Virus record (IMG/VR): IMGVR_UViG_2917393062_000002
Coordinates: 1-42,580 of that record
Source of the DNA: a virus
Lineage: Duplodnaviria > Heunggongvirae > Uroviricota > Caudoviricetes
Length of the DNA stretch: 42,580 nucleotides
Strand: one strand, 5' to 3'
Shown in pieces: positions 6,597-7,372 of the stretch. The notes under the pieces are model-generated. The model was not told where the DNA came from and ran no database searches. It saw nothing but the letters and a program-made list of their open reading frames with translations. Made by a program: the position numbers and the translations under genes. Within the stretch, counting starts at the first letter, position 1. Each line of letters starts with the position of its first letter.

Positions 6597-6664
6597 TTTA
6601 TGTCATTTTTTACAGCGGCGCAATGGAGAGAATAGCAAAAGTTTTTGGTAATACAGTAAACAGG

Positions 6665-7078
6665 ATGGATATGTTCAAAAAATCATTACTCTTAACATTG
6701 GTGATGTGTTTGCTTTTTTCTTCTTTTGCGGACGCAAAACGGAGACATAAAAGATCATCTCATCGTTCGCAGCATCATCACTATTACAGGGATAACAGAG
6801 CAAGTAAGCAGGAAGTTTGCTCGGAAGGATATGTTGATTATTTTGGAGTGTGCAAGGGCAAAGACATAAAACAGGGCGAAGATCCAAAACCAGCTATTCA
6901 AAAGAAAAAAATAAATAAGGCGAGCAAAAATACATCAAGTATAAAAAATAGCCAACCAGACCGGCGAGAGAAGACAGCGTTTCAGCAGAAAAAAAATGTA
7001 CCGACTTGTGCGCCGCTGAATATGGCGCATAAACCGGGATATACGAATTTGCCTATATGTGTGGACGGAGAATACTAA
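6665..7078 (+). CDS. Secreted lysine-rich small protein (moron), 4 Cys; start at 6665 or 6671
   Basis: Signal-peptide-like N-terminus MDMFKKSLLLTLVMCLLFSSFADA|K; AT-rich codon usage unlike neighbours; between Q and the lysis genes. Confidence 0.45.
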   Translation: MDMFKKSLLLTLVMCLLFSSFADAKRRHKRSSHRSQHHHYYRDNRASKQEVCSEGYVDYFGVCKGKDIKQGEDPKPAIQKKKINKASKNTSSIKNSQPDRREKTAFQQKKNVPTCAPLNMAHKPGYTNLPICVDGEY

Positions 7079-7151
7079 TGTAACACAAAGATGTTTACGA
7101 TCGTAAAAATCCGGATATCCTGTTAAGAGTGGTTACTTCGCCACACAGCTT

Positions 7152-7178
7152 AAACCCGCCGCCAAGCGGGTTTTTTTG
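7152..7178 (+). terminator. Rho-independent terminator
   Basis: CCCGC-cgccaa-GCGGG followed by TTTTTTT. Confidence 0.6.
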
Positions 7179-7372
7179 TGTCTGAAAAATGGTGCAGTAC
7201 GTTAAATGTGTATGTTGTTTTTTTAAAATTTAGAAATAATAAAAATGCATACGTATATTTACGAATATTGACATGGCTTTCTATTGAAAAAAGAACCGGC
7301 ATTATTAATATCTGTCATCGGTTCCGAAGGGGATGTAAGCGCGGTCATTTTTATTTCTCTTGAGGAACCAAT

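Follow-up and report, generated by a model that had tools for sequence, protein, structure and literature searches.

A derivative of the long YdcA proteins in the cargo slot behind a phage antiterminator Q gene

Results

The gene and its product

We analysed a small plus-strand gene in the virus record IMGVR_UViG_2917393062_000002 (Duplodnaviria; Heunggongvirae; Uroviricota; Caudoviricetes), all 42,580 nucleotides of which make up the stretch referred to here as the window. The gene follows the antiterminator gene Q and precedes a conserved promoter-like and terminator element. An earlier note had described it as AT-rich, horizontally acquired cargo for a secreted protein of 136-138 residues, transcribed late under Q and standing where Shiga toxin (Stx) phages carry stxAB. 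The features of the gene and its immediate surroundings are as follows.

6216..6596, plus strand: antiterminator Q gene, 126 residues, PF06530 (Pfam E 8.5e-54)
6597..6670, plus strand: spacer between Q and the open reading frame (ORF), 74 bp, 35% GC, with AGGA at 6662-6665
6671..7078, plus strand: coding sequence of the 135-residue pre-protein, stop codon included (frame conserved across homologues; ratio of non-synonymous to synonymous substitution rates, dN/dS)
6671..6736, plus strand: predicted Sec signal peptide, residues 1-22, MFKK / SLLLTLVMCLLFS / SFADA, cleavage after Ala22 (n-, h- and c-regions)
6737..6853, plus strand: degenerate remnant of the YdcA domain, with a His/Arg-rich mature N terminus (KRRHKRSSHRSQHHHYY) and the first cysteine pair, C50-C61 (CSEGYVDYFGVC) (hhalign, alleles)
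6854..7000, plus strand: disordered, fast-evolving Lys/Gln-rich linker (predicted local distance difference test, pLDDT, below 50; dN 0.43-0.64)
7001..7060, plus strand: invariant C-terminal loop motif PTCAPLNMAHKPGYTNLPIC (Cys113...Cys130) (invariant columns, dN ~0.1, AlphaFold2 (AF2) pLDDT ~80)
7094..7121, plus strand: putative Q-dependent late promoter, with -35 TTTACG at 7094-7099, a 16-bp spacer and -10 TATCCT at 7116-7121 (conservation)
7105..7178, plus strand: conserved late-control element, which closes with the intrinsic terminator 7152-7178 and borders the cargo slot on the right

The frame is open throughout 6578..7078 and offers three candidate starts, TTG 6578, ATG 6665 and ATG 6671. 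Only ATG 6671 (MFKK...), which is preceded by the purine-rich AGGA ribosome-binding site at 6662-6665, is kept in all homologues. ATG 6665 (137 residues) and TTG 6578 (166 residues, overlapping Q and chosen by the Prokaryotic Genome Annotation Pipeline) are lost in the E. albertii alleles and in that of the related prophage L011. The protein, currently annotated as hypothetical, is therefore 135 residues long, slightly shorter than first described.

A search of 5.8 billion proteins returned eight protein clusters that keep the frame at 55-94% identity, all of them from Escherichia coli, E. albertii or Escherichia sp., with the window belonging to Escherichia sp. E4930. In a codon-aligned comparison of five alleles, third-position changes dominate and dN/dS is 0.09-0.3. 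The constraint is uneven, with dN ~0.1 and saturated dS in the last 27 codons as opposed to a dN of 0.43-0.64 in the linker, and the loop is nearly unchanged among the E. coli, E. albertii and Escherichia sp. alleles. Thus, 6671-7078 is a genuine gene under purifying selection. Its GC content is 39.5% (37.5% at third codon positions) compared with 50.4% for the window as a whole, 46.7% for Q, 51-55% for RusA/DUF968 and 48-56% for the lysis genes, which agrees with the AT-rich composition noticed earlier.

The signal peptide consists of an n-region (MFKK), a hydrophobic core of 13 residues and a c-region (SFADA) with an A-x-A motif, and cleavage is predicted between ADA and KRRHKR, so that the mature chain would begin at Lys23. 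The mature part has 113 residues and a pI of 9.8, with 17 Lys, 8 Arg and 6 His. Four cysteines (50, 61, 113 and 130) belong to the mature part; a fifth, Cys 13, is in the signal peptide. These features bear out the earlier description of a classic signal peptide cut at FADA/K ahead of a highly basic, Lys-rich chain with four cysteines. The gene product is a protein of ~13 kDa that is largely disordered, very basic and equipped with a cleavable-type signal peptide, and its export is predicted. A lipoprotein of the Bor, Cor or Rz1 type was considered and rejected, because the lipobox [LVI][ASTVI][GAS]C is lacking at the end of the signal peptide: the window has LVMC and homologues have LLTC, LLVC or LAMC, all with non-permissive -1 residues, and the conserved A-D-A site sits nine residues past the LVMC stretch.

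Structure prediction, one of the checks that the earlier note had proposed, gave a low-confidence and mostly disordered AF2 model (mean pLDDT 57). The signal-peptide helix and residues ~110-130 are all that stands out, the loop being the best predicted part (~80).

A replaceable slot behind Q

DNA similarity to phages with an 81-83% identical Q stops at ~6555 and resumes at ~7093. The last ~40 bp of Q (from ~6555) thus travel with the cargo cassette, similarity to the Q genes of PhiR40_1 and DLP12 ending at ~6554. Between these borders other phages carry unrelated cargo, often on the opposite strand: L22 in phiP27, orf49/50 in SfII, a 147-residue gene in PhiR40_1, two genes each in Stx2a_1447 and cdtI, and the porin gene nmpC in DLP12, a cryptic prophage of E. 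coli K-12. The gene therefore fills a replaceable cargo slot between Q and the conserved promoter-like and terminator element, and the view that it is horizontally exchanged is upheld, since phages with such similar Q genes carry entirely different genes there. Genes of the same type (the phage type, defined below) lie directly 3′ of a PF06530-type Q in every locus examined, while the rest of the phage varies. Present or absent between homologous flanks in related phages and deviant in composition, the gene resembles a moron in these respects.

The right-hand border is formed by a conserved block that reads ...AAAAAT..TATCCTGTTAAGAGTGGTTACTTCGCCACACAGCTTAAACCCGCCGC..GCGGGTTTTTT. It occurs once per locus in all 25 loci with a PF06530 Q, among them DLP12, P27, SfII and Stx2a phages, and in none of the loci without one. 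The TATxxT hexamer is invariant among eight phages with different cargo, and the pattern TTKMNR-N16-TATNNT-GTTAAGAGTGG is found in 20 of the 25. In DLP12 and SfII the block lies 120-140 bp upstream of the holin gene (120 bp before essD in DLP12), and in Stx2e and Stx2a prophages it heads a series of a 65-residue gene, a methylase, tRNAs, stx and the lysis genes. Expression of the DLP12 lysis genes was reported to depend on a Q-type antiterminator (PMC7918800). The block is most readily read as a putative Q-utilisation (qut) site with late promoter and terminator, the intrinsic terminator at 7152-7178 following ~25 nt past the predicted start.

The arrangement bears on how the gene is transcribed. 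It likely lies upstream of the late promoter and qut site, and Q-dependent late transcription, as proposed in the earlier note, is unlikely because the only Q-linked conserved element (~7094-7178) falls after the ORF and not before it. A late promoter directly behind Q was also considered and rejected, as that DNA is not common to the phages with 81-83% identical Q, several of which have minus-strand cargo. The intrinsic terminator that had been assigned to the gene does exist at 7152..7178, but it is not the gene's own, because the element containing it is shared by phages with other cargo. Neither a terminator nor a consensus promoter was detected in the spacer (6597-6670), making co-transcription with Q the simplest expectation. 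Transcripts would arise by read-through of the Q (early-right) transcript or at a weak promoter that escaped recognition, and would end at 7152-7178.

The same data speak to a role in lysis timing or another late function, for which only the position between Q and the lysis genes argues. The gene is linked to Q and not to a lysis cassette, its position is upstream of the putative late promoter, and its product shows no lipobox or spanin features. The holin/endolysin sets found alongside it are of three kinds: GH108, M15 peptidase and lambda-like S/R/Rz. With lysis cassettes varying among loci, we rejected this role, to which we assign hardly any probability.

Relation to Shiga toxin prophages

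The closest relatives of the locus are Stx2e prophages, which carry a 96% identical gene. In these, stx2e lies ~2 kb further downstream, and the conserved element, a 65-residue gene, a DNA methylase and tRNAs stand between the two; the same order is found in Stx2a_1447. The gene is thus not where Stx phages carry stxAB, contrary to the earlier note: the stx slot is ~2 kb downstream, past the conserved element and the tRNAs, and its equivalent in the window (7527-8212) is empty, that is, non-coding. Two further features define this downstream region.

7200..7208, no strand assigned: junction where related prophages hold the 65-residue gene and the DNA methylase (~1.5 kb), both absent here (L011/L014 alignment)
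7373..7526, plus strand: tRNA-Thr(TGT) and tRNA-Gly(TCC) (downstream context, Rfam)

In the L011 and L014 prophages, window segments 6100-7208 and 7200-7928 map 1.5 kb apart. The ~1.5-kb segment is missing relative to L001, L011, L014 and phiP27, and the flanks overlap by 9 bp in the alignments; this overlap at 7200-7208 suggests a deletion between short repeats. The two tRNAs stand where Stx phages have tRNA-Ile and tRNA-Arg. The non-coding interval 7527-8212 contains a long hairpin (7655-7744), which gives spurious microRNA (miRNA)-model matches, and a second strong terminator (7892-7912). A match to the small RNA family STnc100 at 7724-7923 is sub-threshold, scoring 22 bits where 47 is the gathering score. 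Apart from this and the spurious miRNA matches, Rfam finds only the two tRNAs.

A close allele is present in 23 of 5,426 complete E. coli genomes (0.4%), 20 of the 23 being porcine. In 20 of the 23 it forms an intact block with stx2e, and other Stx2e prophages are without the gene. The gene had no match among 50,697 phage records.

A reduced member of the YdcA family

Homology searches had also been proposed in the earlier note. Direct scans were blank: the protein has no usable match in Pfam, NCBIfam, PHROGs or PADLOC, with a lone PHROG match at E 0.029. Sequence matches in the PDB were to the signal-peptide and His-tag regions of engineered G-protein-coupled receptor constructs and were discarded as artefacts. 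Profile searches led to a family. A profile built from the phage type only, searched against 1.84 billion representative proteins, retrieved, with E values from 8e-9 to 9e-4, proteins of the Pantoea type and long YdcA proteins that have a C-terminal motif in common. The widened profile has 214 members, mostly with a precomputed PF27300 assignment.

These members fall into three subfamilies: the phage type, a Pantoea type (138-189 residues) and 132-residue long forms named 'YdcA family'. The long forms are by far the largest subfamily, with PF27300 precomputed, and occur in hosts including Citrobacter, Enterobacter, Klebsiella, Salmonella arizonae, Yersinia, Serratia, Pantoea, Erwinia and Pectobacterium. 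Their N terminus is the four-cysteine YdcA domain, which is all that NCBIfam PRK10040 matches. The AF2 model of a long form (mean pLDDT 54) contains a weakly predicted small β-hairpin in the YdcA domain and a disordered linker.

All three subfamilies have a signal peptide ending in A-D-A and followed by basic residues (the conserved pattern being ADA then K/R/A-R-G), a disordered Lys/Gln-rich linker and the C-terminal motif P-T-C-[AS]-P-L-x-M-A-x-x-P-G-[YF]-T-x-L-P-[IV]-C. The latter forms a 20-residue loop closed by two cysteines, both invariant in more than 100 sequences, and is the only module common to the whole family. A profile of this motif alone brought up no new domain architectures, its yield being limited to the truncated gene calls described below.

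The relationship extends beyond the loop. In an hhalign comparison, the phage type aligns over its full length with 31 long forms (99.5% probability, E 3.3e-23), and tblastn with an Enterobacter long form finds 31% identity to the window over 124 residues. The four-cysteine domain, CSGSKGGIxHCT..G.F.C.DG..S.SK..C, is not found in the window protein, in which only the last cysteine and the SK motif can be aligned; hhalign pairs SKQEVCSEGY of the window protein with SQSKRFCSGYG, the stretch that closes the YdcA domain. The precomputed PF27300 is absent from all phage-type clusters, and the C50-C61 pair is missing from half of the phage alleles. These alignments show the phage protein to be a derivative of long YdcA in which the Cys-rich domain has decayed to a His/Arg-rich stretch, whereas the signal peptide, linker and loop were kept. 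The gene is accordingly a new phage variant, reduced by one domain, of a family that is named but has not been characterised, and our confidence in its identity and anatomy is high. A literature search on YdcA and EC042_4546 found no functional work, and neither the C-terminal loop nor the genomic associations described here came up.

Some database names in this family call for caution. Truncated gene calls covering only the C-terminal loop of long YdcA (P0125-P0132 and P0147) bear the NCBI names 'lysine acyltransferase' or 'HlyC', and one such 45-residue call is found on 522 E. coli contigs. The names look like an annotation artefact on gene remnants.

With the family in hand, the topology of the protein can be considered. 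The flank past the hydrophobic segment carries a charge of +5 compared with +2 for the N-terminal flank, and by the positive-inside rule the segment could insert with its N terminus out and its C terminus in, leaving the basic domain to act in the cytoplasm, for example on nucleic acid. Several features argue for export instead: the A-x-A motif is conserved in all subfamilies, the invariant cysteine pairs fit an oxidising compartment, the hydrophobic core is just 13-16 residues long and the long forms bear a four-cysteine domain typical of exported proteins. We consider a membrane-anchored cytoplasmic protein improbable.

The Lys-rich linker is encoded by poly(A)-containing DNA, with tracts A7 (6905-6911) and A8 (6989-6996) that are frameshift hot spots elsewhere. 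Frameshifted alleles break exactly at these tracts and lose the C-terminal loop (P0135, 34 contigs; P0137, 19 contigs; P0144). The frameshifts could reflect mutational decay or phase variation.

A captured long-YdcA gene might have become a functionless remnant. Such a decaying passenger would account for the degenerate N-domain and the cysteine pair lost in half of the alleles, for the frameshifts at poly(A) seen in dozens of contigs, and for the rarity of the gene among complete E. coli genomes and phage records. However, dN/dS stays far under 1 where dS between alleles is saturated, the loop hardly differs across Escherichia alleles, and both the start codon and the ribosome-binding site are conserved, which leaves decay with a low probability.

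The family distribution also weighs on whether the product is host-directed, as a toxin or antimicrobial precursor that frees a C-terminal disulfide-looped peptide or as a histatin-like cationic, His-rich peptide. The layout of signal peptide, basic 'pro' region and conserved C-terminal Cys loop ending in Tyr resembles such a pre-pro-protein, and the close allele is nearly confined to Stx2e prophages of porcine enterotoxigenic and oedema disease E. coli (20 of 23 genomes). Yet plant-associated and environmental Enterobacterales (Pantoea, Erwinia, Ewingella, Serratia) have chromosomal genes in which the loop is equally invariant. The loop has a single Cys pair and is not preceded by a conserved processing site. 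No export or immunity gene is adjacent, and the pig association can be explained by clonal Stx2e prophage lineages. Nor does the protein have the two or three disulfides, the defined pro-peptide site or the restriction to enteropathogens expected of an enterotoxin-like precursor. The suggestion of a secreted effector or antimicrobial-like peptide is thus unsupported, the homologues being chromosomal genes of many non-pathogenic Enterobacterales, located in type VI secretion system (T6SS) clusters; we judge a host-directed role highly improbable.

Genomic context of the chromosomal relatives

The chromosomal context of the long forms was counted over 28 species-representative loci from at least 15 genera. 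In 20 of the 28 the gene lies inside a T6SS cluster, after tssF-tssG-tssJ-tssE and before tagA/VasL, and a 156-residue gene of unknown function often accompanies this arrangement. In enteroaggregative E. coli (EAEC) 042 the long form is the first gene past tssE of the Sci-1 cluster. The next gene, in ~21 of 28 loci, encodes a 414-residue T5orf172/GIY-YIG protein with two N-terminal transmembrane segments that matches PD-lambda-1 (SNIPE) at E 5e-85. SNIPE, a membrane nuclease, cuts the DNA of phages while it is being injected (PMC13190303).

A related protein occupies the slot behind Q in the prototype Stx2e phage: L22 of phiP27, a PD-lambda-1 match (E 2e-89), shares 63% identity over 297 residues with the nuclease behind long YdcA and is closer to it than to canonical SNIPE. 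A full-length long form, in turn, is found in a phage slot behind a lambda-type Q (L061). The slot can be called a defence hot spot because phiP27 L22 and the SfII PDC-M53 pair occupy it. That the Q-proximal slot is a defence or exclusion hot spot, and that the family is tied twice to SNIPE-like genes, is circumstantial evidence.

Several neighbouring genes deserve mention in their own right. L22 of phiP27 (L002 1250-2479), annotated as unknown, is a PD-lambda-1/SNIPE-like GIY-YIG protein, and SfII orf49/50 (L003 811-2425) match the candidate defence system PDC-M53 A/B. The tssE-tagA/VasL interval of at least 15 genera (L018 4465-8098; L049, E. coli 042, 8511-14673; L021-L048) holds the 156-residue protein, long YdcA and the SNIPE-like nuclease; in EAEC 042 it also includes a 3′-5′ exonuclease, and tagA is annotated there as fragments. 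E. albertii prophages with the phage-type gene (L007/L009 2134-3636, minus strand) also carry a full-length canonical SNIPE (PD-lambda-1, E 5e-198), located in the nin region with Q 2.4 kb downstream of it. In Pantoea agglomerans (L020/L046 6001-7492) the Pantoea-type member adjoins a SRAP-domain gene and an 82-residue gene, with a free-standing TolA C-terminal-domain protein (137 residues) on the opposite strand. Two IMG/VR records (L066, L067) that seemed to place a YdcA-SNIPE pair outside T6SS clusters were rejected, as they lie at the edge of a T6SS cluster beside an integrated prophage.

The position of the long form directly past tssE in 20 of 28 loci, EAEC 042 Sci-1 included, would be expected of a T6SS accessory or modulator. 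Its loop might bind a periplasmic T6SS part or the assembly site, and the phage copy would tune or block the T6SS of the host or of an attacker. On the other hand, E. coli K-12 retains a short YdcA without any T6SS, and the Pantoea-type members, like some of the long forms, are encoded away from T6SS clusters, phage slots included (L020, L022, L038, L046, L061). The intervening genes, the SNIPE-like nuclease and the exonuclease of EAEC, resemble a defence islet inserted in the cluster, and no paper mentioning the gene turned up in the literature search. A T6SS function is therefore distinctly unlikely.

Other features of the window

The lysis cassette (8213-9492) comprises overlapping holin-family genes, PF16931 (8213-8668) and PF05449 (8604-8972). 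Behind them comes a GH108 endolysin that contains a PG_binding_3 domain. Further downstream, the gpA-type large terminase gene is split into an ATPase domain (11704-12696) and a nuclease domain (22700-23824). The ~10 kb between the halves encode a tyrosine integrase (12861-14096), a Bro-N protein and a D5-type primase-helicase (16608-18353). They also contain one of two ClpP-capsid fusions, at 19937-21778; the other is found outside them, at 25370-27607. The interruption (11704-23824) looks like a capsid-encoding satellite or integrative element inside the prophage terminase gene.

Discussion

Taken together, the gene is best explained as slot cargo derived from long YdcA that encodes an exported loop protein and acts at the envelope in phage exclusion or defence, a reading to which, as a whole, we give a probability of roughly 40%. 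In the corresponding mechanism, the Sec machinery would export the pre-protein, which would be cut after Ala22, as the family-conserved signal peptide suggests. The invariant pair Cys113-Cys130 would be oxidised in the periplasm, and the loop may engage a conserved envelope partner, with the disordered basic linker serving as a tether. The outcome would be exclusion of, or defence against, an incoming phage at the envelope or DNA-entry stage.

This role is proposed because the slot carries defence cargo in relatives, and because the chromosomal homologues usually precede a SNIPE-like nuclease with two transmembrane segments. The slot cargo in question is the SNIPE/PD-lambda-1-like nuclease of P27, PDC-M53 of SfII and the porin NmpC of DLP12, and there is thus a genomic link to defence genes and to a hot spot. 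The function itself, judged from such genomic evidence, is nevertheless a tentative and somewhat doubtful proposal.

Several points weigh against it. The window protein is itself unmatched in the PADLOC, Pfam, NCBIfam and PHROG scans, neither it nor the long form matches a defence family known to PADLOC, and no SNIPE homologue is encoded in the window. The chromosomal SNIPE pairing may be one ancestral arrangement inherited with the T6SS cluster, and a slot shared with defence genes is circumstantial. If the gene were transcribed with Q alone, in lytic growth, it would give the lysogen no protection, and the late promoter that sets these expectations is putative, being recognised by its conservation. 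Alleles with frameshifts occur fairly often. The first six mature residues (KRRHKR) carry a charge of +5, and such positive charge early in the mature region is atypical for efficient Sec export; located right behind the cleavage site, these residues could hamper export or favour the N-out/C-in topology. The AF2 models are uninformative, their mean pLDDT being 57 (window protein) and 54 (long form).

A more specific scheme would make the loop proteins periplasmic sensors or adaptors of the two-transmembrane SNIPE-like nucleases, the two genes together forming a DNA-entry block in T6SS clusters. The phage copy, which lacks the YdcA domain, might then be a stand-alone exclusion factor using the same contact between loop and target, or a decoy that titrates this contact and disarms the host system. 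We regard this scheme as unlikely. If functional, however, the recurrent pairing would extend a recently described form of entry-stage immunity by a periplasmic component.

Whatever the function, an apparent orphan is now placed in a widespread and unstudied enterobacterial family. The 20-residue disulfide loop is the module that selection preserves, and offers a handle for pull-downs and mutagenesis. The analysis also defines, for phages with a PF06530 Q, a slot between Q and the late-control element that is distinct from the toxin slot and holds defence genes in relatives. It bears on the ways in which Stx2e and other converting prophages gain accessory functions.

Comparison with known systems

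The closest comparison is with the long YdcA proteins, such as WP_001403987.1 after tssE in E. coli 042 and P0029 of Citrobacter braakii. They have the same signal peptide, linker and loop and a similar length (132-135 residues). In the window protein, a His/Arg-rich stretch replaces the four-cysteine domain (CSGSKGGIxHC...C.DG...SK..C), retaining its last cysteine, and neither PF27300 nor PRK10040 scores it; its gene adjoins a prophage Q and not a T6SS cluster, and has no SNIPE-like gene behind it. YdcA of E. coli K-12 (57 residues, an uncharacterised periplasmic protein, PRK10040) shares the ADA signal peptide and the basic mature start and belongs to the same wider family via the long forms. 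It consists of the Cys-rich domain alone, however, without the linker and C-terminal loop, which are the parts that the window protein keeps.

With regard to position, NmpC of DLP12, L22 of phiP27 and the PDC-M53 pair of SfII are encoded in the same slot between the 3′ end of Q and the late-control element, and are likewise AT-rich and present or absent among relatives. Their proteins are unrelated to that of the window gene, and several are encoded on the opposite strand. The stxAB genes of Stx phages are also accessory cargo between Q and the lysis genes, and a close allele of the window gene resides in Stx2e prophages. They differ in that stxAB relies on late transcription and is located beyond both the late-control element and the tRNAs, whereas the window gene lies upstream of the element.

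The precursors of the heat-stable enterotoxins STa and STb, also found in porcine enterotoxigenic E. coli, have a similar signal peptide, pro-like region and C-terminal Cys peptide. There is no homology, the loop in the window protein has a single disulfide and no processing site, and its family is widespread in non-pathogens. Cor, Llp of T5, Ltp of TP-J34 and gp15 of HK97 are prophage envelope exclusion factors that are lipoproteins or membrane proteins. The window protein has no sequence similarity to them and, with LVMC, no lipobox; the likeness is one of a possible way of working, in that all are small prophage proteins from moron-like genes, exported or predicted to be so, that could block a phage at the envelope.

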